The notes under the pieces are model-generated. The model did no database searches. It was not told the DNA's origin and saw only the letters and a list, made by a program, of their open reading frames with translations. Below, in pieces: positions 5,462 through 58,279 of a DNA stretch of 64,000 nt; the first letter of the stretch is position 1, and every line of letters starts with the position of its first letter. Both the position numbers and the translations under genes were made by a program. Source of the stretch: a virus; the IMG/VR virus record IMGVR_UViG_3300045988_149975. One strand, 5' to 3'.

Positions 5462-7327
5462 TCACTTTACTACCTCTGCTTCAATAGGTTTTTCTTCTGT
5501 TAAAAGTGCTTCAAGTATTCCTCCGCTGCGTGGATTACTACCCTTTACAACGGTACTTTCTATAGTTCCACCTTTTACTACCGTTTTACTTACTGTTACA
5601 GGATTACCATTTACCTCATTCTGTAATTTATGTAGTTTTTCTAAATAACCCCATGCATCTTTCATTAAATCAGAAGTTCTTTCTGTAGCTATACCACCTT
5701 GTTGAGTTTCTTGTAAATATGATTTCTGTACTCTTTCCAAAGCTAAATCGGCTAAAGAAGTCATACCATCTATTACATCATCTTGATTACGAGTATTAAA
5801 CTTACGGAAAAGATTATCGTAAGCACAGATATATCCTGCTTGATATTCAGGACAATTAGTTGCTAATACGCACCTGTCACATGATAATCTTGCTATTGCT
5901 TTAGTAGAAATTTTCTTTTGTTTTCTTAATTTTTTAATACCTGCCTTAATATTACCGTCTTTATCATATATAGGTGTAATATCATTTCTAATAAGTTCTT
6001 TTTCTACCTCATCCTTATCATAACCTGCTGTAAGCAGCGCAGGAAGAAGTTTTCCACATTCCTCTCTTGATAACTCCACCTCTGTATACTCTTTATCTGT
6101 AATATACTGCTGACGCTCTAATGCTTTACGTTCATTATCTAAAGGCTCATGTAAATTCTGTAAAGCCCTCTCCTGTCCATTTAAAGCGTTTTTAAAAGCC
6201 TCTTTTAAGAAGGCTATACATTTATCCTTTGTATTATATTTAACACCCTCTGCGCCAAAATATGCGCAAATTTCAACTAAATCTTCAAGCTGATAAGCAT
6301 TTAAGTCTTTATTATTAATAAAGTTATAAAAATCTAATAATAAAGTAGTGCCAAAATCTTTAGGTACTTGTGTATCTATACCTGCTTCATCTAACTTATC
6401 TTCCCAATCGTTCATATCAGTTGAAAACCACTCATAAGAAGGTAACTTATACATCTTTCTATCACTCCAATACTTTTTAGGGAACATAACCTGTTTTACA
6501 TACTCTTCCATTTTCTTAAAAGCAATAGCTGATGCTTTCATAAGTTCAGTTGACGCTTCTATATCCAATAATTTAGGATTAAGTTTAAGTGCTTCTAACT
6601 TTCCACGATATTCCCCATCTTTCCATTGCTCTTTTTTCAACCTTTTAAGTTTACCACCTTCAAAATAGTTTACTTCCCCGAACTGTGAACCCGTAAGCCA
6701 ACTTGTCATATCAGCAGAGAAAAAAGGATGTTTGAGTAATAATTTATTACTTCCTACACCAAAACCATGTATTTTAGCTTTATTTTTGACTGCTATCTCA
6801 AAAAGTTTATCAATATACTCAATAGGATTATCTAAACTTGCGTTCATTTCAACAGCAGAAAAACCAACATAAGGATGTTTTCTACAAAGTTTATCAAAAT
6901 CCTCAAAGCTATCATCTAAATGATATACATATATTACAGGTATACCCTCTTCTTCTAAAGGCATAAAATATTCTTTACGCCATCTTTCTACAACATCTTT
7001 GCCAACAAGACTTGATAAGTCAAGTTCTACACAAGCAAAGATTAAATCTCTATGCTTTTTAACAAAGCCTATGTATTTCTTTAGATAATCTTCCCACCAC
7101 TCTACGCTTTTATCACGATATTGAGCGTCATTTATGAAAGTATGTGCGCCACTGTCAATAAGAAATTTCATTCCTTTTTTCTTGTATAACCGTTCTTCTA
7201 TCTCCTCTTTACCTCTACGCCTTATATAGTAATAAGACAATAATAAATTTTTAGTGACTGCACTTGCTATATCATAAATTTGTTTAGGCTCAACACCTGA
7301 TAAAAATAATGTAAATTCGCTTTTCAT
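5462..7327 (-). CDS. dpdA: DpdA-like protein: TGT-family (tRNA-guanine transglycosylase fold) N-terminal domain plus a roughly 350-aa C-terminal extension; candidate 7-deazaguanine DNA transglycosylase
   Basis: FLIDSGAHTF resembles the TGT LMTDSGGFQ motif and HGFGVGSNKLL resembles the TGT nucleophile region; queC and queE homologues lie nearby. Confidence 0.5.
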   Translation of the reverse strand: MKSEFTLFLSGVEPKQIYDIASAVTKNLLLSYYYIRRRGKEEIEERLYKKKGMKFLIDSGAHTFINDAQYRDKSVEWWEDYLKKYIGFVKKHRDLIFACVELDLSSLVGKDVVERWRKEYFMPLEEEGIPVIYVYHLDDSFEDFDKLCRKHPYVGFSAVEMNASLDNPIEYIDKLFEIAVKNKAKIHGFGVGSNKLLLKHPFFSADMTSWLTGSQFGEVNYFEGGKLKRLKKEQWKDGEYRGKLEALKLNPKLLDIEASTELMKASAIAFKKMEEYVKQVMFPKKYWSDRKMYKLPSYEWFSTDMNDWEDKLDEAGIDTQVPKDFGTTLLLDFYNFINNKDLNAYQLEDLVEICAYFGAEGVKYNTKDKCIAFLKEAFKNALNGQERALQNLHEPLDNERKALERQQYITDKEYTEVELSREECGKLLPALLTAGYDKDEVEKELIRNDITPIYDKDGNIKAGIKKLRKQKKISTKAIARLSCDRCVLATNCPEYQAGYICAYDNLFRKFNTRNQDDVIDGMTSLADLALERVQKSYLQETQQGGIATERTSDLMKDAWGYLEKLHKLQNEVNGNPVTVSKTVVKGGTIESTVVKGSNPRSGGILEALLTEEKPIEAEVVK

Positions 7328-7512
7328 CTATCAAAGGAACGGTATAAAGGATTACGGCGAAGCCTATCTACTCTCGAACTTAACCTATTCCATGTTCGCT
7401 GATTCCATGTCGGTCGATTTCGGCGTAAACGCCCTGTATCATTACGTTTAATGTCAATAGACACATCATTATTACTATTGCCTAATGTATTATAATCTTT
7501 TCTACTACCCAT
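7324..7512 (-). CDS. small Arg-rich ORF (62 aa) or a non-coding GC-rich spacer between dpdA and queC
   Basis: Locally GC-rich; repeated ACATGGAAT and GGCG...CGCC hairpins; the coding assignment is doubtful. Confidence 0.2.
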   Translation of the reverse strand: MGSRKDYNTLGNSNNDVSIDIKRNDTGRLRRNRPTWNQRTWNRLSSRVDRLRRNPLYRSFDR

Positions 7513-8090
7513 TATAATTCCCCCATTTCATTTTTAGTTAAATAGAATTTATATTTCTGTGCTTCTCGCCATTTACAGTCAGTACATTGTCCACAAGGCT
7601 CTCCTACATTATTTGCAAAATTACAGGAAAAAGTATCTTCTAAATTAACATTTAAAGAGCAGCCTATACGATACACTTCATCTTTATCCTTGTCTATAAA
7701 TGGTGCAATTACTTTATATTTGTCCTCAAATTCCACTCTTAAATAAGCATTTATAGCATCCACCCACTTTTGAGTAGTATCTATAAATTCTGTATTAGCA
7801 ATTAATCCTATATAAATATTAGCGTCCTTTGGATATACCCTATTAATTAATTCTAATACAAATCTTGCATTACGGCAAGGATTAAAACCATCTTTTTCAA
7901 TTTTGGAGCGCATTTTATCAAAATAATCAAACTCTTTATTCTCCAAAATTTCACCTACATTAATAAGTTTACTATCTGTATCTTCCATAATAAAGAAAAA
8001 TGTTTTAGGATTTAAACCTTTATGTTCCATCCATGCCTTCAACACTGTACTGTCATAACCATGACTCCATAATAAAAAATTATCTCTCAA
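7512..8090 (-). CDS. queC: QueC-like PP-loop ATPase (7-cyano-7-deazaguanine synthase family) with SGG changed to SHG
   Basis: FLLWSHGYDSTV aligns with the SGGxDS PP-loop; C-terminal CGQCTDCKWRE matches the QueC Zn site CGxCxxCxxR. Confidence 0.65.
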   Translation of the reverse strand: MRDNFLLWSHGYDSTVLKAWMEHKGLNPKTFFFIMEDTDSKLINVGEILENKEFDYFDKMRSKIEKDGFNPCRNARFVLELINRVYPKDANIYIGLIANTEFIDTTQKWVDAINAYLRVEFEDKYKVIAPFIDKDKDEVYRIGCSLNVNLEDTFSCNFANNVGEPCGQCTDCKWREAQKYKFYLTKNEMGEL

Positions 8091-8355: not shown

Positions 8356-8748
8356 TTATTTGACAGGACAAGTGCTTGCTGCATTTAATTTTACCTCCAA
8401 GTCTGTTAAGTTATCAACAGAACTATCATCTAAATAAACGTGGGCAAATACTTTTCTTGCTCTTAAATTTTCTATCCACCATTTCATACCGTCAGGGAAC
8501 ATTTCTTTTATACGCTCCAAATCATCATTAACAGCGTCAAACTCTAATCCCAACTTTTTACAATAAGAAACTGCCTCATCTAAACTCTTACCACACCTGC
8601 AAGTCCAAAGGATTAATTCGTTCCCTGCTTCTTTTAATTCTATGAGTTTTTCTATTACACATCTACCGCTTTTATCTTCTTTAAGATAGCCAATATTCGG
8701 AAAAGCATTTTCTACGATAGTTCCATCAAAATCTACTGCTATAATCAT
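8356..8748 (-). CDS. HAD-superfamily phosphatase, T4 Pnk-phosphatase-like (DxDGT)
   Basis: MIIAVDFDGTIVEN... motif I and a C-terminal ...VYLDDSSV motif. The tracker ORF extends to 8862 through an N-terminal region that overlaps the RNR 3' end; start at internal M39. Confidence 0.5.
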   Translation of the reverse strand: MIIAVDFDGTIVENAFPNIGYLKEDKSGRCVIEKLIELKEAGNELILWTCRCGKSLDEAVSYCKKLGLEFDAVNDDLERIKEMFPDGMKWWIENLRARKVFAHVYLDDSSVDNLTDLEVKLNAASTCPVK

Positions 8749-8791
8749 TTTATACTCCTTATAAAATAGTGCGCCAAAAGGCGCACCATAA

Positions 8792-11671
8792 TTAACATTT
8801 ACTATAGCCACAATTATTACAATAAGCACACTTACCATCAGGAATAAGAGTATACTCACCACATTCAGGGCATTTCATTTTGCCATTATGAATATCATCC
8901 TTTACCTCATGAATAGCTTTCTGCGTTTCCTCTGTAAGTGCTTTTTCAAAAGTATTTTTAGCATCCTCTATAGCTGTCTTATTTTCTTGCAAGTCTTTAT
9001 AAATATCTCTAATTGCACTTGCAATACAAGAAGCGCAAGATTTAGAAATATCTTTTCTACCGCTACGCATTAAATAACTACAAGCAGGACAGTTAGCGTT
9101 GCTTAACTCATCAGCAATATCTAATGCTTTACCACCAAGCCTTAAAGCATAGCTTGTAAGTCTTGCAATAGTAGAAATATTAGCTTGACAGCCTGTTTCT
9201 GCACCTACAAAAACCTCAAAAATGTGATTATCTTTTACATTTACTGTTACATAAAAATTTCTTACACAAGCTGTATGGTAAACAAAAGTGCGCCCCCAAA
9301 GGGATTTCACTCCATTACGTTTAACAGGCTCAAGATTATCTAACTGTCTTGCTTGCATATCATCTACTGTAACAGGTTCTTTAATAATCTCAACTTTTGG
9401 CACATGATTTTTAACTTCTTTATTCTCTACATCAGCACGTTTTACACCATGGTCAGTACCAAGGATATTAATGCGTTTGCAGTTATCACGAAAAATAGTA
9501 ATACCCTTACAACCATTTGACCATGCCTGCAAATAAAGGTTAAAAATATCATCTACAGTTGCACTCTCTTTAAGATTAATAGTAGAAGAAATTGCATTAT
9601 CTACATAAGACTGCATAGTAGATTGTAAATCAACCCTATCCTTGGGGTCAATATCATAAGTATCTACAATATAAGGAAACTTTTCTTTAATCTGTTCAGC
9701 AGTAAGTTCATTGGGATTATAACCTCTAAATTTTAAAAGATTTTCCACTGCAAGCATATTAATATGGAAAGATTTACCTTCTTTTTCAAGAACATGAGTA
9801 GTTCTATCATAAGACACTTGATAGTATGGTTCTACACCACCACTTTCTCTAAAGAGCATTGAAATTGAACCGGTAGGTGCAATACTCAATAAAGTGCCAT
9901 TACGCATATTTTGAGATAAATCCTTTGCCACTCTTGAAGTAAATCTGTACTGAATATCATGTACCATACCACTTTTATCAAATTTTTCTTTGTCAAATTT
10001 ACCAAAACTACCCTTTTCTGCCCCTAATTTTGCAGAAGTGGCATAGGCAGTAGTCTGCATATTGCGCATAATAGATGCTATAAGTTCAATACTTTTTTGA
10101 CTGCCATATTTAATACCCATTGCTACAAACATATCTGCCATACCAAATATGCCTAAACCAATGCTACGCCAATCATCAATACATTTCCTATTCTTATCTA
10201 AAGGTTGAAGTTCATAACCATAATCAAGAATTTCATCTAATGCGGTTACAGCATTTTTAACTGTATCACAGAATCGCTCCATATTGAAATGCGCCGTATC
10301 AGTATAAGGATTATCTACGAAGTTATAAAGATTAATACTACCTAAATTACAAGCATTATACTCTGAACCTGCAAATTCACCACAATTCCCTGTCAAAACA
10401 CCATTGGCAATGAAGGTATGATTTTTAGGCTCATTCATACAATAAACAGTATCAACTACTTCTGCTTCTTCGATAGCTACAACGCTAATTTTAGGGCAGG
10501 CATAAGCTGTTACAATAAAATCAAGGTCATTATTAAAAACAGGATGTTTATACCAATCTAAAGTGTCACCAACTTTTAAATCTTTAGCTTCAACTCTGCC
10601 GACATCCCTCAATACCCATTTATGGTAAGGGGTACACTGAACAGTAGCACCATTAGAGAATTTAATCTTTAAAGTCTTTTGGTCATGCCCTGTTACTTTA
10701 GGAGTAACTTTGCTCCACTCATAACCATTCCAAACTTCTACCTCTTTACCTGCTAATTCCCCAATAGGTTTATACCCCTTTTTAGTAAGAATAAGGGTAT
10801 CACCAGTTACACAAGGGTTTGTAGTATCAATCCTATATTCATTAATAGGATAGCCACTCAATAAGTTACATTCTCTTACATTATCAATAAATAATGCCCC
10901 AGGCTCTCCCCAATCATACTGCGCTTCACAAAATTTCCTAAAGAAATCTCTTGCATTAATTTCTTTTTTAACCTCTTCACCATTTTCTTCATTTTTAAAG
11001 TGCAACTCAAAATTCTCATTACTAATTACACTTGTCATAAAATCATCAGTGAAACATATAGAAATGTTCGCACCCTGAATTTTATCATTATTCTGTTTAA
11101 TAGTTAAAAATTCTTCAATATCAGGATGGTCACAATTCAAGGAAATCAGAATTGCTGCCCTTCTTCCGTTATTTCCAATAACTTCACCAATTACATTATA
11201 GACATCCATGAAGGAAACTGCACCGCTTGAAGTCTTTGCAGAATTATTAACTTTAGCACCCTTTGGGCGAAGGTTACTCAAATTAATACCTGCTCCACCG
11301 CCAAAGCTAAAAATTCTTGCCATTTCCTTACCTACATCAAAAATAGATTCAATGTTATCTTTAGGTGAGGGAAGAATATAACAATTACTTGTTGTGGCTC
11401 TAAATTTTCCTTTACAACCTGCTGCATAAAGTGTTCTGCCCGCAGGTAAGAAAGTACCATCTATAATACTCTCTACCATAAAATCTTGTAATTCTTTTGT
11501 AGAAAAAATACTTGATACTCTTTTAATGAAAGCATTAAATCCTGCATCAAAACCTTCCTGTTCTACAATTTTTAACTCGTCATCGTGCATATATTTTTTC
11601 TTTATAATATTTTGCGGAATTTCATCATCCCACCATACTTTATACATATTTACATTACTAATTCTACCCAA
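8792..11671 (-). CDS. nrdJ: ribonucleotide reductase (probably class II, adenosylcobalamin-dependent, monomeric type) containing a mini-intein
   Basis: Active-site NPC-GE split as ...TTNP / CVTGDTLILT...FIANGVLTGN / CGEFAGSEYNACNLGSINL; no ATP cone; Cys-rich C-terminal zinc-ribbon tail. Confidence 0.75.
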   Translation of the reverse strand: MGRISNVNMYKVWWDDEIPQNIIKKKYMHDDELKIVEQEGFDAGFNAFIKRVSSIFSTKELQDFMVESIIDGTFLPAGRTLYAAGCKGKFRATTSNCYILPSPKDNIESIFDVGKEMARIFSFGGGAGINLSNLRPKGAKVNNSAKTSSGAVSFMDVYNVIGEVIGNNGRRAAILISLNCDHPDIEEFLTIKQNNDKIQGANISICFTDDFMTSVISNENFELHFKNEENGEEVKKEINARDFFRKFCEAQYDWGEPGALFIDNVRECNLLSGYPINEYRIDTTNPCVTGDTLILTKKGYKPIGELAGKEVEVWNGYEWSKVTPKVTGHDQKTLKIKFSNGATVQCTPYHKWVLRDVGRVEAKDLKVGDTLDWYKHPVFNNDLDFIVTAYACPKISVVAIEEAEVVDTVYCMNEPKNHTFIANGVLTGNCGEFAGSEYNACNLGSINLYNFVDNPYTDTAHFNMERFCDTVKNAVTALDEILDYGYELQPLDKNRKCIDDWRSIGLGIFGMADMFVAMGIKYGSQKSIELIASIMRNMQTTAYATSAKLGAEKGSFGKFDKEKFDKSGMVHDIQYRFTSRVAKDLSQNMRNGTLLSIAPTGSISMLFRESGGVEPYYQVSYDRTTHVLEKEGKSFHINMLAVENLLKFRGYNPNELTAEQIKEKFPYIVDTYDIDPKDRVDLQSTMQSYVDNAISSTINLKESATVDDIFNLYLQAWSNGCKGITIFRDNCKRINILGTDHGVKRADVENKEVKNHVPKVEIIKEPVTVDDMQARQLDNLEPVKRNGVKSLWGRTFVYHTACVRNFYVTVNVKDNHIFEVFVGAETGCQANISTIARLTSYALRLGGKALDIADELSNANCPACSYLMRSGRKDISKSCASCIASAIRDIYKDLQENKTAIEDAKNTFEKALTEETQKAIHEVKDDIHNGKMKCPECGEYTLIPDGKCAYCNNCGYSKC
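10385..10813 (-). mobile_element. mini-intein (about 143 aa, no endonuclease domain) inserted at the RNR catalytic Cys
   Basis: Begins CVTGDTLIL and ends ...GVLTGN, followed by +1 Cys of the C-extein CGEF; residues 287-429 of the ORF. Confidence 0.7.
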
Positions 11672-11684
11672 TTCATTCCCTCCA

Positions 11685-12281
11685 TTATAATAAAAATTCT
11701 TCTGCCATTGGCAACTTCTCTACAAAATCCATGAATACTTTATTCCACGCTTTAAGTCTATGGTTTTTACGCTGCGATACCATAGTTTTAATTTGCTGAT
11801 AATTTGTAGAAATACGAGCAGTAAGCTGATAACCCATTGGTACATTAGCAAGTACAGTATCAAAATCACATTCACCTTTATTGTATCTATCTACATATTC
11901 TTCAGCAATAGCGATAACTCTTTCATCTGTACCTTCTACACACATCTTTGCAATATCTGCTTTAAGTAACTTGTGCATTTTACTTGTGCTACTTACAATC
12001 TGCTGAAAATGATACCTTTGCCATTCTGCCCAAAAATATTGTGGCATTTCTAAATCAAACTGAACTATAATACCAGTTAAAAAATTATTATGACCGCTTC
12101 CGATAGGTGCTTTGGCTAATGCTTCTGCTCTAATAATATGTTTATTTTCATCATCCAATAATGCAATTTTCATTGTCTGTTTATCAAATTCTTTAGCATT
12201 AGGAGTTTTCAATAACATAGGATAACCCGAAGCCAAAATACTTTCCTCTAAACCATACACATTTACATTACTTATCTCCAT
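11685..12281 (-). CDS. thyX: ThyX-family flavin-dependent thymidylate-synthase-like protein (divergent: RHR replaced by RYHF)
   Basis: [30 protein letters not shown] parallels the ThyX [39 protein letters not shown] parallels LRADSHAQWEI. Confidence 0.5.
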   Translation of the reverse strand: [198 protein letters not shown]

Positions 12282-12903: not shown

Positions 12904-13545
12904 TTACTTTACATTTAAAATTTTATGTAATTGTATACCTATCCTGCCCTTTATACTTCCGTCCAGTAAAGTTTTATTTATAAGTTTTACAGATTCCTCA
13001 TTGTTATTAACTGGTGAAAGAATTATTTCTGCTTTTGTAGGATATTTCTTCAAAATCTTTTTAGCAAATTCAATATCCCTCTCATTATCAATCACAAACT
13101 TAACTTCATCATAGGATTTTAATACAGCTAAATTATTATACTTATTAAGCCCTTCTACACCACTACATGGACATTTTATATCCATTACATAATTATAGCT
13201 TCTTTTATAGTCATCACTATCTATATCTATAAGTCCGCTTGTTTCAATACTTACAATATATGAAAAAGATAAAAGTTCATAAATAAGCGGGTAAATATCA
13301 TTCTGTAATAAAGGCTCTCCACCTGTTAAACAAACATATTTATTACCTAATTTACTTACCTCTAACATAATTTTATCCAAACTCATTAAACTATAATTCT
13401 TACCCTCACAAGCATATATTGAATCACAATATCTACAAAATGGCTTTGCAACACATCCATAAAACCTAATAAAAGTAGTAGGATAGCCCGTATACTTCCC
13501 CTCACCTTGTATTGATGAAAAAATTTCAACTACTTTCATTTTCAT
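12904..13545 (-). CDS. queE: 7-carboxy-7-deazaguanine synthase QueE (radical SAM)
   Basis: VEIFSSIQGEGKYTGYPTTFIRFYGC...C..C motif, and LTGGEPLL. Confidence 0.75.
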   Translation of the reverse strand: MKMKVVEIFSSIQGEGKYTGYPTTFIRFYGCVAKPFCRYCDSIYACEGKNYSLMSLDKIMLEVSKLGNKYVCLTGGEPLLQNDIYPLIYELLSFSYIVSIETSGLIDIDSDDYKRSYNYVMDIKCPCSGVEGLNKYNNLAVLKSYDEVKFVIDNERDIEFAKKILKKYPTKAEIILSPVNNNEESVKLINKTLLDGSIKGRIGIQLHKILNVK

Positions 13546-13909
13546 ACCCCCAATCTAATTTGACAACATCACCATTCTTTCTTCTTCCAAAATTTCTTGA
13601 AAAACTATCGACTAATAAAAAACGTAACTCTTCTTCAGATTTAACTTTAACTTTAAAATATTCCTTTAAATCTAACTTACTATAGTCATATTTATTTAAT
13701 GGTGTAACACGTTCTGCAATATTGCATAAACCAAACGGTAAGGAAACATACAACTTGGTAAGATACTTACTTCTATTCCTGTTTTGCCATTCATATTTAT
13801 TCTGTTTTATGCCTTCACCAACTGTACGATAGTATGGAAATTTTAAAACAAAGTTACCTATAATCAATATAAACCTACTACCACCTCTTGTAGTATAAAA
13901 CCATTTCAT
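13526..13909 (-). CDS. hypothetical protein
   Basis: 127-aa ORF; no QueD-like HGH motifs. Confidence 0.45.
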   Translation of the reverse strand: MKWFYTTRGGSRFILIIGNFVLKFPYYRTVGEGIKQNKYEWQNRNRSKYLTKLYVSLPFGLCNIAERVTPLNKYDYSKLDLKEYFKVKVKSEEELRFLLVDSFSRNFGRRKNGDVVKLDWGYENESS

Positions 13910-13933: not shown

Positions 13934-13964
13934 TTAAAAAAGAAGCCCCCATAAGAGGGCTTTT
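13934..13964 (-). terminator. rho-independent terminator downstream of spoVS
   Basis: AAGCCCCC-loop-GGGGCTT hairpin followed by a U-run on the minus strand. Confidence 0.4.
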
Positions 13965-14244
13965 AATTTAAACTTGTAAATAATTTAATCAAAGTGCGTT
14001 CTTCACCTTCAACTACAGTAACATCAAATCCTGGGCGCACAACTATATCCCTACCATTTGAAGCAAGAAAACCTCTTGCAACAGCAACTGCTTTTACAGC
14101 TTGTGATAAACTTGCAGCACCTATACAATGTAATACTACATTTGAAGCTACTGTATTGCCCTCACCTTTAAGAGTTTTAGCAATACAGCCTGCAAGAGAT
14201 TTAACATTACTGCTACCACTTACTTTTAATACTACCTCTTTCAT
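13963..14244 (-). CDS. spoVS: SpoVS (stage V sporulation protein S) homologue
   Basis: 93 aa. Strong full-length similarity to SpoVS (VLKVS..SN..SLAGCIA...QAVKAVAVARGFLA...EGEERT.IKL). Locally higher GC than its surroundings. Confidence 0.8.
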   Translation of the reverse strand: MKEVVLKVSGSSNVKSLAGCIAKTLKGEGNTVASNVVLHCIGAASLSQAVKAVAVARGFLASNGRDIVVRPGFDVTVVEGEERTLIKLFTSLN

Positions 14245-14334
14245 TGCCTTACCTTCCTATATTTTCTGCTTATTTATTATACTTTTAATCTACATTTAAA
14301 GCCTCAATTATACATATTTATTTCTATACTTTAT

Positions 14335-14362
14335 ATTATAACATATTTTGATAAAAATTCAA
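14335..14362 (-). promoter_or_regulatory. candidate promoter for spoVS (TTGAAT, 16 nt, TATAAT)
   Basis: Minus strand TTGAATttttatcaaaatatgtTATAAT, about 90 nt upstream of the start codon. Confidence 0.3.
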
Positions 14363-14892
14363 CATTGATTTATAATTTTTTTCTCATCAATAATAGAGAA
14401 AAAATCATTAAATTTCAACATTACAAAATCTTGTGACTTAAACTTTCCTTTTACCTGACTTTGGTGCATTATAAGTACAGGTATTTTTCCATTAATGCAA
14501 TCATTTTCTGCCTGTTTAAACCATTCCTGAACGGAAGTCCATCCATTCTTATGATTTTTAAGTTCTAAATGTAAGAGAAAATTTACATTATCAGTATAAC
14601 ATACTACATCTCCTCGCAAAGCATTATTCTCAATTCCCTTTAAATAACCACCACTTGATGCTGTTCTACCGAATTTAAGTAAAGGAAAAATTTTATTCAA
14701 CTCATTGACTATTTTCCTTTCAAAATTTGCACCTTTAGTTTTAGAGGATTTACCTAAATTGCTTTTTTTAATTTGTTTTTCTAATTTCTCTATTTCAGGA
14801 CTGTCAGGAGCATTTTCTTTCAAGAAAACTAATTTATCTTTTAATAAATCAACCCTACGCATTAAACTTTCCGCTCCTATTACTATCTTCAA
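14359..14892 (-). CDS. putative PD-(D/E)xK nuclease (Holliday-junction-resolvase-like)
   Basis: GDVVCYTDNVNFLLHLELKNHK gives a D...ExK pattern; lies in the recombination/replication module. Confidence 0.3.
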   Translation of the reverse strand: MKIVIGAESLMRRVDLLKDKLVFLKENAPDSPEIEKLEKQIKKSNLGKSSKTKGANFERKIVNELNKIFPLLKFGRTASSGGYLKGIENNALRGDVVCYTDNVNFLLHLELKNHKNGWTSVQEWFKQAENDCINGKIPVLIMHQSQVKGKFKSQDFVMLKFNDFFSIIDEKKIINQC

Positions 14893-16054: not shown

Positions 16055-16921
16055 CTAATTTCCCCTTTCACACAAATCTTTAAATGCACACCATTTACAA
16101 TAACGTGTATTATCCTTTTTAGGAATGATTCCTTCTGCTACATACTTATTAATCTCCTTACAACGATTAAGCAAATCACTAATTAAATCTCTATCCCATT
16201 CAAAGGGAAATTCCTTCAATTCTTGTGTATCTTTACATTCATAAAGAAAAATAATCTTTCTAATAGGTTTAGGATATTCCTCTAAAAGTTCAAGAGTTTT
16301 ATCAAAGATTGCCATTTTCTTTTCCAACTTCTGCTCTTTTGTATATTTTCTACCATCCTCTAAAAAACTCTCTAATTTAGTTTTATAAAGATTTCTTAAC
16401 CATTCCCCATCACCTAAAAGAACTTTTTTACGCATTTCATCTAAACAATACATATATAAACTTGCTTGAAGTTTATGTTCAGGTTTTGCATCAGTTAAAG
16501 CATTAAAACCGTTACTATTAATACTCTTAATTTCAAGTATTGATAACCTGTCACTATCTTTAAGTAAACCATCTGTATTACCCATTACTTCATATTCCAC
16601 ATTAAATACAGGTGCCTCATCAAGTAAAAGTACGCCTGCTTCTTTTAAATAACCTTGTAATCTCTCATGTACAAAAGTGCCATTATTTAAAATGCGGAGG
16701 GAACGTGGGTCATCATTAGCATTAGTCTTTTTAGCAAAACAACGGTTATAATAAGAAGCCCTCATGCAACCTCCTATACCACTTGGACTATTCCATCCAT
16801 GCCCCCTATCCTCTGTTCCGCTATCCTTCATTAAAAGCATATCAATAGCAGGAATTAACAGGCTGTTCTTTGTAAGTGTATTTAAAGAGGGAACACTTCC
16901 TACTACTTTAAACTTCTTCAA
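16055..16921 (-). CDS. PD-(D/E)xK exonuclease, Cas4/RecB-nuclease-like, with a 4-Cys cluster
   Basis: N-terminal Cys plus C-terminal CKWCAFKDLC; DGLL...LEIKS (D..ExK). Confidence 0.55.
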   Translation of the reverse strand: MKKFKVVGSVPSLNTLTKNSLLIPAIDMLLMKDSGTEDRGHGWNSPSGIGGCMRASYYNRCFAKKTNANDDPRSLRILNNGTFVHERLQGYLKEAGVLLLDEAPVFNVEYEVMGNTDGLLKDSDRLSILEIKSINSNGFNALTDAKPEHKLQASLYMYCLDEMRKKVLLGDGEWLRNLYKTKLESFLEDGRKYTKEQKLEKKMAIFDKTLELLEEYPKPIRKIIFLYECKDTQELKEFPFEWDRDLISDLLNRCKEINKYVAEGIIPKKDNTRYCKWCAFKDLCERGN

Positions 16922-17367
16922 ATTACTGCTACCTCCTTAAAATCCTCTAATCTTGTTATCTGCCAAACTGCACCACCGTTGAATCTATACAAATATAAAT
17001 ACCCCACATCAATATAATTTAAAATATCAGCAGAAAGTTTAGAACTCTCCTTGCAATCTAATACATCACTCTCATTATAGTAATTATAAAAATCATAAGC
17101 CCTATAAGCAATATAATCTTTATCTTTAACTCTTATTGCAAGTAAGGGTATTCTATTACATTTAAGTGCCTCATTCTCAATCTTGCTTAAAATCTTCCCC
17201 TTTAAAATGTAATAATCTTTTTCAGTTGCTTTACACTCAATTAAATAATCATCTGTTACTACATCACCTTTTGCAAAATATAATGCGCCTGAAGCTATTA
17301 CTGTTTTTCCACCTAAACTTTCTGCTATAAATGTTTCATGCTTATTACTTAACTTCTTCGGTTTCAT
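16918..17367 (-). CDS. hypothetical protein (possible nuclease fold, D...ECK)
   Basis: 149-aa ORF. Confidence 0.4.
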   Translation of the reverse strand: MKPKKLSNKHETFIAESLGGKTVIASGALYFAKGDVVTDDYLIECKATEKDYYILKGKILSKIENEALKCNRIPLLAIRVKDKDYIAYRAYDFYNYYNESDVLDCKESSKLSADILNYIDVGYLYLYRFNGGAVWQITRLEDFKEVAVI

Positions 17368-17677
17368 CTTTCACATCCTCTGGTTTCCAAAAACAACAAA
17401 ATGTTCTACCTTCCTCTGTTACCATATCAAAAGGGGTAACAAAAGAATTTTGGCAGATGTCATTTTCGTCATAATATTTACAACTCTCACACCTTGAAAT
17501 GAAATGGGCAGCTTTCATTAAGGCTACATAAAGCCTTGTATCATAGCCTACATGAAAATCCAATACCTCACCTCCTTTATTGTAACTCTTGATAAGCAAA
17601 TTCACCAAAATATTTGAGTTCACCTGCTCTCCTTGCTTGTTTAGCCTCTTCCTCTGTTGTATAACACCATAGTTCAC
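17345..17677 (-). CDS. hypothetical protein
   Basis: 110-aa ORF. Confidence 0.4.
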   Translation of the reverse strand: MNYGVIQQRKRLNKQGEQVNSNILVNLLIKSYNKGGEVLDFHVGYDTRLYVALMKAAHFISRCESCKYYDENDICQNSFVTPFDMVTEEGRTFCCFWKPEDVKDETEEVK

Positions 17678-18753
17678 ATTCTTTTCACAATTTCAGCAAA
17701 CAATGATTCATTTTCCCTTAAAAGACGGACTAAATTATCTTGACCTTGTGCAAGCATTTGGGAATCCATGTAATACCACGCTCCCTTACGCTCTATAATA
17801 CCTTTAAGAACAGCTAATACAACTAACTCTTTAGCGGTATCAATAGAACCTTTAGGAAGTAATCCATCATCAGTATATAAATCGTATTCACCTGTTGTAA
17901 AAGCAGCACCTAATTTATTTTTCTGAATTTTCCATTTAATTACACGCCCTACAATTTTAGCATTAGTACCAGTGCCTTCTTTAATGTAATCGCCTGCCCT
18001 TAAACGGATTTCGATACTATTAGTAAACTTTTGGCTATTTCCTCCAGGAACAGTAGTAGGATCACCATAACCACCAATTTTATCCCTAAATTGATTTATG
18101 GATAAGACAGTAGTAGGCAGTTTACCATTCCTCTCCAAAGTATTATTAAAACTTTGAAATTTACCGTGATAAGTCTGTAATTTCAATGGTTTAATACCCA
18201 TTTGAGCAGTATCAGAAATATCTGTTTCAATATACTTTGTGGGTAACATGGCAGCAATAGAATCTATCACAATAAATTCCACACCCGCTTTTTGCAATTC
18301 TACTGCAATATCTAATGCTTGTTCCATACCTTCAGGTTGACAAAATAGTAATTTATCATTATCAATACCATTCTGCGCTCCCCATTCCTCACTATAACTA
18401 CCACTTTCAATTTGAATTAAAGCAGCTTGTAGGGGTATATCACCATCATCAGCTACTACCTCATATTCAAAATTGCCTTTAGTTATTTTCTTCTTATACA
18501 TATTCTGTACGGCAGCAATGGCTTTATAAGCAAGTAAAGATTTACCACTACTCTCTTGCCCTGCAAGTGTAATATATCGCCCCGAAGGTAAGCCACCACC
18601 TAATGCGTCATTAAGTGATACACTACCTAAAGGAATTTTGAAATTCATTTCATCATTTATATCTGCGCCCTTACGGATGGCATTTACGCCAAAGCGTTTG
18701 TTTATATCTTTTATTAGTGTATTTATATCTGCCATAATTTCCTCCTTTATCAT
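17674..18753 (-). CDS. RecA/UvsX-family recombinase
   Basis: ALGGGLPSGRYITLAGQESSGKS Walker A within a RecA-like N-terminal architecture. Confidence 0.7.
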   Translation of the reverse strand: MIKEEIMADINTLIKDINKRFGVNAIRKGADINDEMNFKIPLGSVSLNDALGGGLPSGRYITLAGQESSGKSLLAYKAIAAVQNMYKKKITKGNFEYEVVADDGDIPLQAALIQIESGSYSEEWGAQNGIDNDKLLFCQPEGMEQALDIAVELQKAGVEFIVIDSIAAMLPTKYIETDISDTAQMGIKPLKLQTYHGKFQSFNNTLERNGKLPTTVLSINQFRDKIGGYGDPTTVPGGNSQKFTNSIEIRLRAGDYIKEGTGTNAKIVGRVIKWKIQKNKLGAAFTTGEYDLYTDDGLLPKGSIDTAKELVVLAVLKGIIERKGAWYYMDSQMLAQGQDNLVRLLRENESLFAEIVKRM

Positions 18754-29243: not shown

Positions 29244-29278
29244 AATAAAAAAAGTAACAAGAGATAACTCTTGTTACT
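29244..29278 (-). terminator. rho-independent terminator after the endolysin gene
   Basis: GTAACAAGAG-loop-CTCTTGTTAC stem followed by U7 on the minus strand. Confidence 0.55.
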
Positions 29279-29807
29279 GTAAATAATCTGTTACACCTCT
29301 TGCAATGGCTCTTGCAATATCATCTTTTTTATTTACTAAAATATTTGCATCGTCCATATTATCAATAAAGGCAATTTCTACTAAAACGGCAGGCATTGAA
29401 GTAGAATTTAATACCACTAAACCTGTTCGTTCTTTTAAACCTCTATCTACTGTGCCAATAGTGCTTACAAGCTGATTTTGTATACATTGCCCTAATTTTG
29501 CACCTGCACCATATAAACTATAAACACAAGTTTCAGTGCCTTTAGCTTCTGTATTAAAAGCATTACAATGTAAACTAATAAATAAATCAGCATAACTATT
29601 GGCAGATTCTACAACACATTCCCCTATACCATCATAATTAAGATTATCAGACTGCAAAAGTTTTACCTCAAAACCTGCATTTTCAAGATAACCTTTTAAC
29701 AAATTACCTATTTCAAGAACTGTATCAGCTTCAGTAATACCTAAAATATGATTTACTGCACCTGAATCGATACCAGGGCAATGCCCAGGATTTATAAAAA
29801 TCCTCAT
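29274..29807 (-). CDS. N-acetylmuramoyl-L-alanine amidase (Amidase_3, CwlD/CwlC-like), the endolysin
   Basis: INPGHCPGIDSGA, SLHCNAF and LVEIAFIDN motifs; no cell-wall-binding domain. Confidence 0.7.
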   Translation of the reverse strand: MRIFINPGHCPGIDSGAVNHILGITEADTVLEIGNLLKGYLENAGFEVKLLQSDNLNYDGIGECVVESANSYADLFISLHCNAFNTEAKGTETCVYSLYGAGAKLGQCIQNQLVSTIGTVDRGLKERTGLVVLNSTSMPAVLVEIAFIDNMDDANILVNKKDDIARAIARGVTDYLQ

Positions 29808-30489: not shown

Positions 30490-30981
30490 TTATGCTACTT
30501 TAACAACAGTCATGGAAGCATTAGTAAGTGTTACCGCAGTATCTACCTGTACTTGTAAACTTGCGCCCACATTAGGATTACAAGCACATGGTTTAGCAAC
30601 CCTAATTAAAGTTGTAAAACTTAAATTATCAGTATCACCTGCTACACCTGTTACAGACGCTTCTGCACCATTTACATCTACACCATTATTTACTAATCTA
30701 ATAGAATATAAACCTGCAACAGTAGGTACTGCATCTACATTTACCTCTACTAAATATATACCTTCTCCACACAAATTAATAGTTGTATCAATACCTCTTT
30801 GTTGGCACAAATTTTGTACCATTCCTTGTAACTGCTGCTCATTCATTCCCTTATACTGATTCATAATTCCTTGTACTTCGGGATTATTACCAAACATCCT
30901 CATAAACATTTGTTCAGGATTAGGATTGTTTCTTATTTGAGCCGCCATTTGCAGAACCTGCATTAGTGATTGGTCTAACAT
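30490..30981 (-). CDS. hypothetical protein (Q/N-rich N-terminus)
   Basis: 163-aa ORF. Confidence 0.4.
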   Translation of the reverse strand: MLDQSLMQVLQMAAQIRNNPNPEQMFMRMFGNNPEVQGIMNQYKGMNEQQLQGMVQNLCQQRGIDTTINLCGEGIYLVEVNVDAVPTVAGLYSIRLVNNGVDVNGAEASVTGVAGDTDNLSFTTLIRVAKPCACNPNVGASLQVQVDTAVTLTNASMTVVKVA

Positions 30982-31748: not shown

Positions 31749-33148
31749 TTATGCCCCTAATTTTTCCACAATCTCATCTTTTGTAAAACCAAGGTTTTTA
31801 TAAAGACTCCGTGGATTTTCTACATATTCGTATTTTAAAATGGTAGTCTTACCATTTTCTTCCATTGTTTCATATTTAACTGTATCTGTATTCTTGCCTG
31901 CTTTTTCTACCTCACCTGCATAAATCCAAATATAATCATCAAATAATAGATTACCCCATAAAGGCTTCCAAACTTCCTCGTTGAAATTTTCTGCCATATA
32001 ATAGTAATCCTCTTTAGAACTTAATACTTTTGGTATACCTCTCATTAATAACTCAATCCTTTCTTTAACAGAATCTAATTTTATACTTTTACGAAAATTA
32101 TAGGTATTTGCCCACTTCATCCAACCTTCTATACTGGCTACCATACCTCTTGCATAGTCCAAATCTAAATCAGCAGTCTTTAATAGACTATCCAATTTTC
32201 TAAACCTGCGTTTTATCCTTTTTGCTGTACTCTTTCTTAATAAAACACAGTTGTTAGGAAATGTCCTATAACCAAGAAAGTCTACACCTTGCGTTATAGG
32301 AAATACATTACTTTTACTTAATAACAGGTTTAACTTATCATAAGCAAATACCTTCGCTTTTTCAGCTACCTCATGTAACTCCTTCTTATCATTACCGAAA
32401 ATTATAAAATCATCACAATACCTTATATATGCACTACATTTTAAATCATACTTTATATAAGTGTCTAATTCATTCATGTATAGATTACCAAACCACTGTG
32501 AAAGATAATTTCCAATAGGTACGCCCGCCTTTCTATGACCAAATTCCTCTACATATCTTTCAAGTTTTCCACGCATTATATCAGCATCTTTACGCCCTTC
32601 AAAATTCTTCAAATAACCTATATTAGCTTCTCTTGTTGCAAGGCTATCTATTATTATATCAAGAATACTTAATAAATCTTTATCTTTAATCTTTTTACGC
32701 AATATTATTTTCAATATTTCATGGTCAATATTTACATAAAATTGTGAAATATCAAGTTTAGCACAATACTTATACTTTCTTACATATTCAGAGCATTTTA
32801 TCATTCCCTTATGCTGCCCCTTACCTTTACGACAAGCATAACTATCATATATAAATAAACTATCCCAAATAGGCTCTAACACATTCATTATAGCATGATG
32901 TACTATTCTATCAGGATAATATGGAAGTACATAAATTAAACGCAATTTAGGCTCATACATTGAATAAATCCTATAAACGGAGTTCTTATAATTTCCATCC
33001 ATTAAATCTTTTTGTAATGATAATAGGTTAGCTTCCAAATTTTCTCTTACTTTAATAACCTCTGATAAATTTCCTTTACCTTTTCCTGCTTTTAATTCAG
33101 CAATTTTAAGATTTTCAATATCAATAATTCTATTCCAAAGATTTCCAT
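31749..33148 (-). CDS. diversity-generating retroelement (DGR) reverse transcriptase
   Basis: YIRYCDDFIIFG (YxDD); PIGNYLSQWFGNLYMNELD, the DGR-specific IGxxxSQ signature; N-terminal NLWNRIIDIENLKIAELKAGKGKGN. The conserved N-terminus extends upstream of the tracker start at 33038; see findings. Confidence 0.8.
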
Positions 33149-33397
33149 ATCTTCGTATTTGAAAAACACCCTCTCTATTAAAAAGTTTAACAAATTGGCA
33201 CTCTTTATAAAGAGTGCCAAAATGCTATTTAGGTATTTAGGTAAATTGATTTTCGCCTTAACTACTAACCCCTTTACCATCCTGTAATGTGTTTCTGCTT
33301 TCGCAGAGGATAGAGATTCAGCCGAAGGATTAGCTTTATACCTATTGTATGATACCTTCGTATCACTACAGCTACGCTCGCCGTTGTTAGAGTTCAC
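33092..33397 (-). CDS. doubtful ORF overlapping the TR and the RT 5' end (no convincing Avd features)
   Basis: 101-aa ORF; its C-terminal third overlaps the conserved RT N-terminus in another frame. Confidence 0.15.
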   Translation of the reverse strand: MNSNNGERSCSDTKVSYNRYKANPSAESLSSAKAETHYRMVKGLVVKAKINLPKYLNSILALFIKSANLLNFLIERVFFKYEDMEIFGIELLILKILKLLN

Positions 33398-33481
33398 ATT
33401 CGCTGAAGCATTATTGACATTAACTGAACGAGAACTGCAACTCGAACTGTTATTCCAGTTACTGCCGAGTTTCGCCTTTAT
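33362..33481 (-). repeat. DGR template repeat (TR)
   Basis: About 120 bp, near-identical to the VR except at roughly 25 positions. At every one of those positions the TR carries A on the minus (transcribed) strand. Confidence 0.75.
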
Positions 33482-33611
33482 AACCTCTACCCTTTTAGTT
33501 GCAACTATTTATATATATAAATTGGGGGTACGAGATGGTTGTCTACATTACCTCTCCAAGTTTATATCAACTTAAACACCACATTAACTTGAATTAATGG
33601 GCTACGCCAAC

Positions 33612-34673
33612 TCAATTCCCAAGTTTATGGAGCGGCTCACCACAGCCACGCCCGCCGCTGAAAGAGTCCACAAGCGCCGAAGCACCATTGACATCAACCG
33701 AACGAGAACCGCAACCCGAACCGCCACCCCAGAGACCGCCGAGCCTCGCCCTGTACAAAGTACCATAGCTTCTACCATAAGACTGGTCATCTACACCACT
33801 ATTATATACAGAATCATTCCAACCACTTGAACCGTTTACACCAACATCACTTGCCCATTGCCATAAGAAACCACAAGCATCTTCAAGCCCATAATTACTT
33901 ATCATTCTTCTGCCCGCTGTATCAACGTGTCCACCAGTTGTATTGGCATCTGTACTACCTTGTATATTAGTACCTTCATTACTTCCTTTTGCCGCCACCT
34001 GAAACTCATATCTCCACGGCAATCTTTTCTTTATATCAGCAAGTCTTTCTACAAACTGTTCACCATGAAATTTCTTTGTAGAAGCACCATCTGCTGTTGT
34101 TCCACCATTTACACTCACAAGTTTACTTCCATTCCACGAGTTTAAGTAAATGTCCATCCATATATCTACTTCAGGAATATAAACCATTCCTTCAGGTGAA
34201 CATTTTGGGCGATGAATTAAATCCCATACTGATTGTGGTAATATATCACCTGCTACATAACCACTTAATGTATGCCCGCTTATCGTACCCACATTTGTAC
34301 ATAAACAATGGAAACCACCTATTTTTCTACTATTATCTGCATTATAACCATTAGGTACAGTAGAATTTAAAGATAATACAAAATCTAATCCATTATTTTC
34401 TACTGCATACACATAAACATCTTTACCGTTTCTATTTGCCAAACTTAAAGACAATGTTTTATCCATATCAGTAGAGTATACATTATCATTTATTCTTAAA
34501 ACCATCCCCGCAGGTATTGTTACAGTAGTCTTATTTGTAGTCATTAAACTTTTTCTATTAAAATAAGTATCAATATACTTTGCCAAAATTTCTTCACTAA
34601 AATTTTCACCATCTATTAAAGAGTTTAAATATGCTCTAATTGTTTCTACCCTTAAATTATTTAATTTATCCAT
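33612..34673 (-). CDS. DGR target protein: tail fibre / receptor-binding protein with a C-type-lectin (FGE-like) fold VR at the C-terminus
   Basis: 353 aa; C-terminal ...YRARLGGLWGGGSGCGSRSVDVNGAS... is encoded by the VR; lies in the tail-fibre gene block. Confidence 0.7.
   Translation of the reverse strand: MDKLNNLRVETIRAYLNSLIDGENFSEEILAKYIDTYFNRKSLMTTNKTTVTIPAGMVLRINDNVYSTDMDKTLSLSLANRNGKDVYVYAVENNGLDFVLSLNSTVPNGYNADNSRKIGGFHCLCTNVGTISGHTLSGYVAGDILPQSVWDLIHRPKCSPEGMVYIPEVDIWMDIYLNSWNGSKLVSVNGGTTADGASTKKFHGEQFVERLADIKKRLPWRYEFQVAAKGSNEGTNIQGSTDANTTGGHVDTAGRRMISNYGLEDACGFLWQWASDVGVNGSSGWNDSVYNSGVDDQSYGRSYGTLYRARLGGLWGGGSGCGSRSVDVNGASALVDSFSGGRGCGEPLHKLGN
33636..33755 (-). repeat. DGR variable repeat (VR) at the 3' end of the target gene
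   Basis: Matches the TR 33362-33481. All mismatches are TR-A to VR-G/C/T on the coding strand; locally GC-rich. Confidence 0.75.
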
Positions 34674-55922: not shown

Positions 55923-56258
55923 TTACGCAGTTTCAATTATTACGCCATGTGTAGGATTAAGAACTGCTGTACCCCAAATGCCATACCAAGCAATCTTAAC
56001 TTCACGCCCAAAATCTTCAGTATCATCTGTACGAATTTCAGGGGCTAAAGATTCTGCAAGTGCATAATAATCTTCGCCAAAGATTACTGCCTGATATACG
56101 TTAGCACTGGAAGCACCTGCGGCTTTAAGTTCTGCTACATAGCCTAAATCGCTTTCAGCAGCAGCACCATTAGGCATAATGGTTGTTTCAATAAAACGAA
56201 CATCGTCAATTCTACCGATTTCCAATCTGTTACTATGGGCGGTAAATACCCATTTCAC
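55923..56258 (-). CDS. major capsid protein (HK97 fold), 3' exon
   Basis: ...AVIFGEDYYALAESLAPEIRT...KIAWYGIWGTAVLNPTHGVIIETA matches the HK97-family C-terminus. The tracker M is GTG; the exon probably begins 1-2 nt inside. Confidence 0.65.
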   Translation of the reverse strand: MKWVFTAHSNRLEIGRIDDVRFIETTIMPNGAAAESDLGYVAELKAAGASSANVYQAVIFGEDYYALAESLAPEIRTDDTEDFGREVKIAWYGIWGTAVLNPTHGVIIETA

Positions 56259-56358
56259 TTACTTTATGTAAGCGGGGGCGTACTTCTATGAGTGTCTTTA
56301 CACTCGACTGCCCCTCTTATGTTCACACATAAGGTCTGACTATCTCTTTACCCCTTTC

Positions 56359-57246
56359 TTATGTTCGAGGTATCTCGTGTATAGTCGATAGACTTTTTTC
56401 AGATAATTTATAACTCATTGATTTTGGTATAAATTCTTTTATGTAGTCGCAAAACTTTGTAAAACTTTTTGAAGGTATTCTTATCATCGGATAACCACAT
56501 TCAAGCTGAACATAGGTTTCAATTTTAATAATTTCATTTAAAGAATTGCTCAATAACTGACACTCCTCAATAGTAAAACAACAAGTTGCTATCTTACCCC
56601 AATTTCCTTTACCTTTACTACCATCATCTGCATACCATATAGCGATTGATAAAGGATTGAGCATTTCCTTAATGTTATTAGGAATAATCTTTGTTTTACC
56701 TTTATAGAACATTTCCCTTAACTGTTTTATATCTCCAAAGGCTTTTGTCCTTTTCCTAACCGATTGATAACCTTCTTTAGTTTTTCTATAATAACTACTG
56801 CTTATATCATTGCCAAAGAAACTTGCCTTATAGTTTAAGTAATCTTCTTGTTTAAGCGAATGACTTAAATAAAGTACCCTTCCATCAAGATAACCGTCAC
56901 CTAAAATGCTACCAATTACAACACTTCTTTGATTATCTGTTAAGTGCTTATAATCACTTTGTACAGCAGATATGCCATAATGTGTTAGCCATTTTGTAAC
57001 TGTACTATTCTTTACATTAAACTTTTCGCCGACATCTTTCTTCCTACCACCATTTTGAAAAACCTCTAATATCTCCTCTTTCGGTGGTATATAAGCAAAA
57101 TGTTCAAAAGTTCCTAACTTATACTCTTTAACAAGTCTTTTTATAACTTTTAAACTTACACTAAAATGTTTTGCAACTAATTTCTGACTTTTTAAGTCAT
57201 TATATACTTTTTGTAAATCTTCTTTTGCAATATAAATCTTTTTCAT
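56359..57246 (-). CDS. LAGLIDADG homing endonuclease (two-motif, intron-encoded), N-terminal HTH
   Basis: VIGSILGDGYL and SIAIWYADDGSKG motifs; its stop lies between P8 and P7' of the downstream intron core. Confidence 0.8.
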   Translation of the reverse strand: MKKIYIAKEDLQKVYNDLKSQKLVAKHFSVSLKVIKRLVKEYKLGTFEHFAYIPPKEEILEVFQNGGRKKDVGEKFNVKNSTVTKWLTHYGISAVQSDYKHLTDNQRSVVIGSILGDGYLDGRVLYLSHSLKQEDYLNYKASFFGNDISSSYYRKTKEGYQSVRKRTKAFGDIKQLREMFYKGKTKIIPNNIKEMLNPLSIAIWYADDGSKGKGNWGKIATCCFTIEECQLLSNSLNEIIKIETYVQLECGYPMIRIPSKSFTKFCDYIKEFIPKSMSYKLSEKSLSTIHEIPRT

Positions 57247-58145: not shown

Positions 58146-58279
58146 TTACGTTACTCCTCTCTTTATGTTTAATCTTAACCTTCTCACAGGATTGGCATGA
58201 CTTTTCAGTTTTAGCTTTCCCTGTTTTCACGAAGTTTAATCGAGTACATTACTGTACAAGTGGACTAATGCTAATGGCT

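Follow-up and report, generated by a model that had tools for sequence, protein, structure and literature searches.

The element described here is a small gene of the SpoVS family (stage V sporulation protein S) in a 64,000-nucleotide (nt) stretch of viral DNA, IMG/VR record IMGVR_UViG_3300045988_149975. Below, the window means this whole stretch, and positions are counted from its first letter. The window is a segment of a phage genome with nearly all genes on the minus strand; judged from its sequence it is a BCD7-like myophage, which agrees with the phage origin given in the preliminary description of this DNA. We find that the open reading frame (ORF) at 13963-14244 is a genuine, selectively maintained SpoVS-family gene with an Alba-like fold. 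Its place in related phages makes it near-certain that it is a backbone gene of their lineage, and an earlier suggestion that it serves to manipulate host sporulation finds no support. The gene and its surroundings are as follows.

14359-14892, minus strand: upstream neighbour, a putative Holliday-junction resolvase of the PD-(D/E)XK type (PDDEXK_15; Pfam PF24608, 70 bits; phrog_244)
14335-14362, minus strand: sigma-A-type promoter-like site, TTGAAT-16-TGtTATAAT (extended -10); the stop codon of the resolvase gene overlaps its -35 element
14245-14334, minus strand: leader of about 90 nt with a Shine-Dalgarno sequence (AGGAAGG, 14252-14258) and short conserved blocks
13963-14244, minus strand: SpoVS-family (Alba-fold) protein gene, 93 amino acids (aa), ATG start (Pfam, PHROG, PDB, AlphaFold2 model and substitution rates)
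13934-13962, minus strand: intrinsic terminator directly 3' of the SpoVS stop codon, with a hairpin at 13962-13943 (8-bp stem with 5 G-C pairs, 4-nt loop) and a T-run
13526-13909, minus strand: downstream neighbour, phrog_4301 protein (PHROG match)

The Pfam SpoVS profile (PF04232) matches the ORF with 83.6 bits against a cut-off of 24, and does so over its full length (ORF residues 5-89 aligned to positions 2-81 of the 83-position profile). The preliminary description had called the gene a full-length SpoVS homologue, to be given up if a profile search placed the protein in a different small alpha/beta family; the search assigned it to SpoVS and the claim stands. The ORF also matches phrog_35646 ('sporulation protein', 2e-20) and the Thermus SpoVS-related protein in the PDB (2eh1, E = 2e-13), while an NCBIfam scan of the 93-aa protein returned no family match. 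In an AlphaFold2 model based on 44 homologues, the predicted local distance difference test (pLDDT) score is 94.5 and the protein forms a single domain with the topology beta-alpha-beta-alpha-beta-beta. Compared by Foldseek, this model is closest to the SpoVS structures 2eh1, 2ek0 and 9a7h_B (template modelling, TM, score 0.83-0.85; root-mean-square deviation about 2.1 Å), with archaeal Alba at TM 0.60-0.66; matches to Alba, Ssh10b, Rpp20/25 and Pop6/7 have a probability of about 1.0 (TM 0.55-0.66). In the alignments made here the SpoVS core residues are present: G42 and K51 are invariant, and Q48, A43, G64, F73 and T84 nearly so.

Pairwise ratios of non-synonymous to synonymous substitution (dN/dS) between the gene and its relatives amount to 0.10-0.20 with dS saturated, indicating purifying selection, and on account of these values we consider the ORF a real, constrained gene. 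Public contigs, 335 in number and the longest of 107 kb, encode the identical protein, which is also present in IMG/VR. It is basic (isoelectric point, pI, 9.4; net charge +4). A plus-strand ORF that overlaps the gene (13994-14299) was rejected as a shadow ORF, as both the family match and the constraint belong to the minus-strand frame. The gene has a GC content of 35.5%, compared with an average of 32.0% for the genes (standard deviation, sd, 3.2), which ranks it 13 of 89; the locally elevated GC reported earlier is thus confirmed in direction, but is marginal (+1.1 sd). A value within about 1 sd of the mean gives no evidence of foreign origin, and a recent horizontal capture argued from GC was rejected.

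Evidence for the wider distribution of the gene comes from protein-level comparison; at the DNA level, a megablast search with 10 kb around the gene against INPHARED gave no match. The portal protein has relatives in Bacillus phage BCD7 (35%), Bacteroides phage BS162P1 (26%), a gut phage scaffold and the Streptomyces phages BRock, LuckySocke, Alone3, GiJojo and pSt2308 (28-30%). Of the 11 phage records whose portal is related, 10 carry a SpoVS homologue, and the one without it is a partial record of 43 kb. When the 89 window ORFs were compared with three of these genomes by local tblastn, 26 were matched in BCD7 (in strictly colinear order), 17 in BS162P1 and 7 in BRock, the last in its replication half. 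SpoVS holds the colinear position in all three, and the shared order is PolA - RecA - resolvase(s) - ... - SpoVS - (Que/DpdA genes). All metagenomic relatives examined (49-99% identity) show PDDEXK_15 - SpoVS - QueD/QueE, in some with an S26-like peptidase between the first two. The PDDEXK_15 gene stands directly upstream of SpoVS throughout the window clade (its BCD7 counterpart is gp034), and in the Streptomyces phages a RuvC-like resolvase takes this place. The earlier placement of the gene in an early/replication region is borne out by the replication and recombination genes around it.

Taken together, these comparisons show SpoVS to be a long-standing backbone gene of a widespread BCD7-like myophage lineage with genomes of roughly 90-115 kb, rather than a recent host-derived sporulation gene. 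Its slot is constant: it closes the recombination module (PolA - RecA - resolvase/Cas4-like - PDDEXK_15 resolvase) and stands immediately before the 7-deazaguanine DNA-modification genes. Its standing as a backbone SpoVS-family gene is the part that we hold to be near-certain. The hosts of the lineage span Bacillota, Actinomycetota and Bacteroidota, and two of these groups have no endospore formers. One supposedly cellular match from the species-genome scan described below, a 115-kb contig binned as Candidatus Saccharibacteria (L047; L numbers denote loci from our comparisons), is probably a mis-binned BRock-like actinophage: it has WhiB, RtcB and an RNA ligase, and its SpoVS-like gene clusters with the copies of the Streptomyces phages (74% bootstrap).

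The preliminary description had also given the gene a transcription unit of its own. The promoter-like site, close to the sigma-A consensus and an addition of the window clade, lies about 90 nt 5' of the start codon, and the terminator was found in a scan that returned 2 terminators against 0.4 expected. Both signals are retained in L001, L003/4/7, L051 and L052 despite diverged intergenic DNA, and for that reason they are considered more than chance matches. Relatives with the promoter at the same place have SpoVS proteins that are 74-80% identical; at this position L003, L051 and L052 show TGGACA/TTGACA-17-TGgTATAAT or TAAAAT (best match 12/12). The terminator stem carries compensatory substitutions in the relatives that retain it, and the T-run is kept. 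No terminator was found 5' of the SpoVS promoter, and the next gene begins 34 nt past the SpoVS terminator without a good promoter. Given these observations, we read the arrangement as a promoter-proximal gene with boosted expression and an attenuating terminator behind it, rather than a fully insulated unit: the signals of the earlier claim are there, the isolation is not.

The possibility of a regulatory leader RNA was dropped, since RNAalifold predicted no base pairs and no conserved secondary structure in the leader, and an Rfam search of the entire window (leader included) gave no match. No sigma-H-like motif (consensus AGGAWWW-N10-13-RNNGAAT) occurs within 200 nt 5' of the gene. The start codon of SpoVS varies among close relatives (TTG in L003, L051 and L053, GTG in L052, ATG in the window) with the Shine-Dalgarno sequence kept. 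Perfect TTGACA-17-TGnTATAAT promoters are present six times on the gene strand of the window (at 63984, 51947, 23692, 12903, 4331 and 144), together with a perfect sigma-A consensus that lacks the TG at 3603. The same strand has eight intrinsic terminators, the one behind SpoVS among them. With so many perfect sigma-A promoters and eight terminators, the phage would use host RNA polymerase widely, and it appears to lean heavily on the host primary sigma factor.

The protein is 44% identical to SpoVS of Bacillus subtilis (a sequence verified by exact look-up). The latter falls within one 90%-identity cluster of 2,676 sequences that spans Bacilli, Clostridia and Negativicutes and includes members from Natroniella, Sporomusaceae, Pelotomaculum, Thermoanaerobacter and Tissierellia. 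Even homologues from non-sporulating lineages are nearer to B. subtilis SpoVS than the window protein is (Acidimicrobiia 69%, Chloroflexota 64-65%, Thermus 58%, Thermotogae 58%). A scan of 185,579 species genomes gave no cellular relative above 52% identity, this being a single-protein query in which peptide patterns (e.g. QAVKAVAV) bias which cellular homologues surface. Cellular matches at 37-52% come from Clostridia, Thermotogae, Chloroflexota and Acidimicrobiia. The best of them (52%) lies in the early region of a prophage in an uncultured Clostridia metagenome-assembled genome (L019, 328-9446), in the order S24 repressor, SbcC-like ATPase, small ORF, SpoVS-like gene, RecT, MBL-fold nuclease and Lin1244-type replication protein.

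Cellular spoVS genes have a context of their own. At the loci L023, L024, L027 and L028 they form the cluster rny (RNase Y) - ymdB - spoVS, with recA a few kb upstream of it, and at Acidimicrobiia-type loci (L020, L066) spoVS directly follows recA. The rny-ymdB-spoVS cluster is found in Peptococcaceae and Clostridiales, but also in non-sporulating Chloroflexota, from which it follows that cellular SpoVS is itself not sporulation-specific; this agrees with its description as a widely distributed Alba-fold protein without such specificity (PMC2732212). The linkage to rny-ymdB and recA could be a lead to the cellular role of SpoVS. The window gene stands between the PDDEXK_15 resolvase and Que genes and not beside rny-ymdB, and its promoter is of the sigma-A type with an extended -10 and no sigma-H motif found, whereas SpoVS expression has been reported as sigma-H-dependent (PMC8510167). 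Neither does it resemble a host-derived auxiliary gene or moron: the species-genome scan gave no close host gene, its distribution is not patchy and its GC is as given above. SpoVS proteins of the phage lineage have a pI of 7.9-9.7 against 5.0-6.2 for the canonical sporulation proteins. PF04232 has 1,332 representatives at 50% identity. Many database proteins (197-494 aa) contain 2-4 tandem SpoVS domains (P0016, P0017, P0019 and about 60 other representatives), and one protein with four such domains comes from the transcriptome of the diplonemid Namystynia karyoxenos.

These comparisons bear directly on the suggestion, made in the preliminary description, that the phage manipulates sporulation. 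Worked out, it would mean that a SpoVS mimic overproduced from a constitutive promoter derails sigma-H/sigma-E-dependent sporulation entry or septation, by dose or through mixed dimers, so that the cell stays vegetative and productive. The protein is a true family member with the core motifs kept (G42, K51, QAVKA..ARG), the related phage BCD7 infects Bacillus cereus, and the phage promoter is of the sigma-A type instead of the host-like sigma-H type. Moreover, SpoVS1 is dose-sensitive in Bacillus thuringiensis, where deletion and overexpression each block sporulation (PMC8510167), and spoVS is listed as a sporulation auxiliary metabolic gene (AMG) in virome studies (PMC6172770, PMC8940887). 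Nonetheless, phages whose hosts form no endospores (Bacteroides, Streptomyces) carry the gene at the same position, the identity of 44% is low for an otherwise ultra-conserved protein, and no close host homologue is present among the scanned species genomes. The occurrence of rny-ymdB-spoVS in non-sporulating Chloroflexota counts against it as well (PMC2732212), and spoVS is not among the 31 sporulation genes that are enriched in phages of spore-formers (PMC10294663).

A spore-former theme had further been read from the lysis genes, with one feature to consider.

29274-29807: Amidase_3 endolysin, single domain (Pfam)

The endolysin is confirmed, but Amidase_3 is a general family, and an XhlA-like gene was not found beside it (neither adjacent ORF has a Pfam match), which leaves the theme weak. 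The only named cellular relative in a search for endolysin homologues is from Acidaminococcus intestini (58%), which does not sporulate. The GC content of Acidaminococcus is well above the 32.8% of the phage, so that this match is a weak hint at the host. Because phages of Bacteroides and Streptomyces have SpoVS in their syntenic backbone as well, the sporulation reading is left unsupported, and the divergence from the canonical protein, the missing cellular donor, the unremarkable GC and the weak theme of the lysis genes tell in the same direction. We regard it as unlikely. Sporulation of a sporulating host might nevertheless be affected, by analogy with B. thuringiensis, in which overexpression of SpoVS1 abolishes spores (PMC8510167).

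The explanation that we favour, at roughly even chances, is that the small basic Alba-fold product of this backbone gene serves the phage's own recombination, replication or RNA handling. Host RNA polymerase would transcribe the gene from the host-type sigma-A promoter, and the promoter, a good ribosome-binding site and the terminator together would give more SpoVS protein than is made of the neighbours' products, early in infection. The product would be a small, basic, probably dimeric (like Alba) nucleic-acid-binding protein that binds nucleic acid, or a nucleic-acid enzyme, in one of these processes; it could be an architectural protein, a regulator or an accessory of recombination or replication. 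If host sporulation were affected at all, this would be secondary and limited to sporulating hosts. Binding of nucleic acids is predicted from the Alba fold assigned to SpoVS (PMC2732212, PMC11621453); this mechanistic part is plausible, though we rate its chances a little below even. Recombination genes adjoin SpoVS in independent backbones: PDDEXK_15 upstream in the window, the RuvC-like gene upstream in the Streptomyces phages and RecT downstream in the Clostridia prophage. Further upstream, the window has the following recombination genes, with colinear matches in BCD7, BS162P1 and BRock.

17674-18753, minus strand: RecA/UvsX-like gene
16918-17367, minus strand: resolvase-like gene in the recombination region upstream of SpoVS
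16055-16921, minus strand: Cas4-like exonuclease in the same region

In a stronger form, the divergent SpoVS subfamily might be a dedicated phage accessory for recombination/replication (or for binding of modified DNA) that has been passed down alongside the RecA-resolvase module in phages infecting Bacillota, Actinomycetota and Bacteroidota. This stronger form is doubtful. If true, it would offer a first mechanistic handle on the SpoVS family, as a nucleic-acid- or nuclease-associated family that is linked to recA, rny and ymdB in cells and is not sporulation-specific.

Several points weigh against a backbone gene with a role in phage DNA or RNA handling. Concerning expression, the terminator is absent in L053, promoter and terminator are both absent in L054, and in BCD7 the gene overlaps its upstream gene and has no promoter of its own; a separate unit is therefore typical of the closest clade and not universal. 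Concerning descent, the phylogeny of SpoVS homologues that had been proposed at the outset (neighbour joining, 300 bootstraps, 88 columns) recovers the window clade with 99% bootstrap, but the deeper branches are poorly supported (53% for the window with BCD7, 4% for the whole lineage) and no clade of the phage lineage is formed. As the 88-column gene tree lacks support for the lineage, common descent of the phage SpoVS genes rests on synteny. The difference in charge is modest, and some cellular homologues are basic too. Nucleic-acid binding by SpoVS proteins is a prediction from their fold, and adjacency is weak functional evidence because genes for recombination and replication crowd together in early phage regions. 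Finally, the relative BCD7 infects a spore-former.

The nuclease neighbours would also fit a SpoVS-like protein that acts as a partner or regulator, tuning the adjacent resolvase, a phage metallophosphoesterase or the RNase Y/YmdB axis of the host. Both the window clade and the Streptomyces phages have nuclease genes directly upstream of SpoVS, cellular spoVS directly follows ymdB (a metallophosphoesterase) and rny, and in the related phage L067 a Metallophos gene (6317-7297) comes directly after SpoVS. In addition, an integrative model from cross-linking (PDB entry 9a7h) places SpoVS of B. subtilis together with YunD, which we take to be a phosphoesterase-type protein. A tie between SpoVS and calcineurin-like phosphoesterases recurs in these cases. 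The argument is guilt by association throughout, however; no metallophosphoesterase adjoins SpoVS in the window, and a literature search on YunD-SpoVS (PDB 9a7h) gave no paper. We consider such a partner role quite unlikely.

On its other side, SpoVS is followed by genes of a 7-deazaguanine set, whose order in the window recurs in BCD7 and BS162P1.

12904-13545, minus strand: QueE-like radical SAM enzyme, the first of the set (Pfam/PHROG)
7512-8090, minus strand: QueC
5462-7327, minus strand: Tgt/DpdA-like gene

This neighbourhood raises the idea that SpoVS would bind or mark the modified DNA of the phage, or assist the DpdA-like transglycosylase; TF1 of phage SPO1, which prefers DNA that contains hydroxymethyluracil (hmU), provides an analogy. 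In BCD7, L064, L067 and the window clade, QueD/QueE/QueC/DpdA genes come directly after SpoVS, and QueC/DpdA-like genes adjoin it in Bacteroides phage BS162P1. In the BRock-like phages of Streptomyces, by contrast, neither the surroundings of SpoVS nor the rest of the 64 kb analysed showed any Que/DpdA genes, the sporadic phage copies in TS-12, LysYB1 and KLEB27-3 have no Que neighbours, and in the window a terminator lies between SpoVS and the Que genes. A literature search on BCD7 and deazaguanine found nothing. An accessory role in 7-deazaguanine modification thus seems improbable to us. QueD (PTPS), which lies 3' of SpoVS in L003 and L051-L053, is missing from the window and from L001, and a Mom-like gene accompanies the 7-deazaguanine genes in some relatives.

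The remaining gene content of the window comprises structural genes (terminase, portal, major head protein, tape measure, tail proteins), replication genes (helicases, primase, DnaB, DnaC-like proteins, family-A DNA polymerase), the recombination genes RecA/UvsX, Cas4-like exonuclease and PDDEXK_15 resolvase, and, besides the 7-deazaguanine set, ribonucleotide reductase, an RNA ligase and a diversity-generating retroelement. The retroelement is complete (31749-34673, minus strand) and has two genes.

31749-33038, minus strand: retroelement reverse transcriptase
33612-34673, minus strand: Mtd-like target gene of the retroelement (PF21916)

The retroelement has a 114-nt template repeat (33363-33476), and its counterpart is a variable repeat (33637-33750) at the 3' end of the target gene; the two are 77% identical, with mismatches nearly all at template adenines. 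Beside the lysis/tail region, a 163-aa ORF (30490-30981, minus strand) matches the C-terminal domain of BclA, though below threshold (22.6 bits; cut-off 38).

The gene for the major head protein is apparently split (55923-58972, minus strand): the ORFs 58280-58972 and 55923-56258 correspond to the N- and C-terminal parts of BCD7 gp100, and the roughly 2 kb between the two halves hold a LAGLIDADG ORF (56359-57246) and an I-HmuI/HNH-like ORF (57615-58145). This suggests one or more introns with homing endonucleases; the Rfam search of the window, split head gene included, gave no match to a group I or group II intron. The large terminase (61387-63798, minus strand) is 803 aa long and probably contains an intein or insertion, as family matches are confined to its two ends. 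In the 99%-identical relative L001, LAGLIDADG inteins are found in RecA and ribonucleotide reductase (1-2104 and 8437-11829), and the window lacks both.

Phage homologues of SpoVS had been annotated before, in the product name of the BCD7 gene, in PHROG 35646 and in AMG lists of viromes (PMC6172770, PMC8940887), and BFVD contains a 'SpoVS' structure from an uncultured phage. Our comparisons add that SpoVS is a lineage-wide syntenic gene with ties to the recombination module, which undercuts the sporulation label. Studies of soil and marine viromes routinely label phage spoVS as a sporulation-manipulating auxiliary gene, and this label can mislead: caution over the AMG annotation is called for because the gene is lineage-wide, is carried by phages of hosts that form no endospores and is far from the sporulation protein. 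Three culturable pairs of host and phage would allow a SpoVS/Alba-like role to be tested: B. cereus with BCD7, Streptomyces with the BRock-like phages and Bacteroides with BS162P1.

The closest named system is BCD7 (JN712910 / NC_019515, genus Becedseptimavirus), where gp031, a 'putative stage V sporulation protein S', occupies the orthologous slot in a colinear genome with 26 shared genes in the order PDDEXK_15 ... SpoVS ... QueD/QueE/QueC/FolE/Tgt-like. Both proteins belong to the same family, are of similar length (90 aa for gp031, 93 aa in the window), basic, and end in ...VSLN and ...TSLN, respectively. They differ in sequence (44% identity) and in a 5-residue insertion (GEGNTVASN region) that is typical of the window clade and absent from gp031. 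The BCD7 gene overlaps an upstream S26-peptidase-like gene, which is why no promoter of its own is assigned to it. With B. subtilis SpoVS (SP5S_BACSU) and the canonical cluster, the window protein shares the Pfam family, the fold, the single domain and the core IGAxxxxQAxKAxAxARG; the canonical proteins are neutral or acidic and come with the rny-ymdB-spoVS context and sigma-H, whereas the window protein is basic and has another context and a sigma-A-type promoter. Among solved structures, the SpoVS-related protein of Thermus thermophilus (2EH1/2EK0) is 39% identical to the window protein, with TM 0.85 to 2EH1, and archaeal Alba (1H0X, 2Z7C) is more distant at 14-19% identity and TM 0.60-0.66. 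Sporadic annotated SpoVS copies of the canonical type in Stenotrophomonas phage TS-12, Lysinibacillus phages LysYB1/2 and gut phage MT835471 share 64-71% identity with the B. subtilis protein and stand in unrelated genomes and contexts; these look like separate, more recent captures, whereas the window gene represents a divergent, lineage-wide subfamily.

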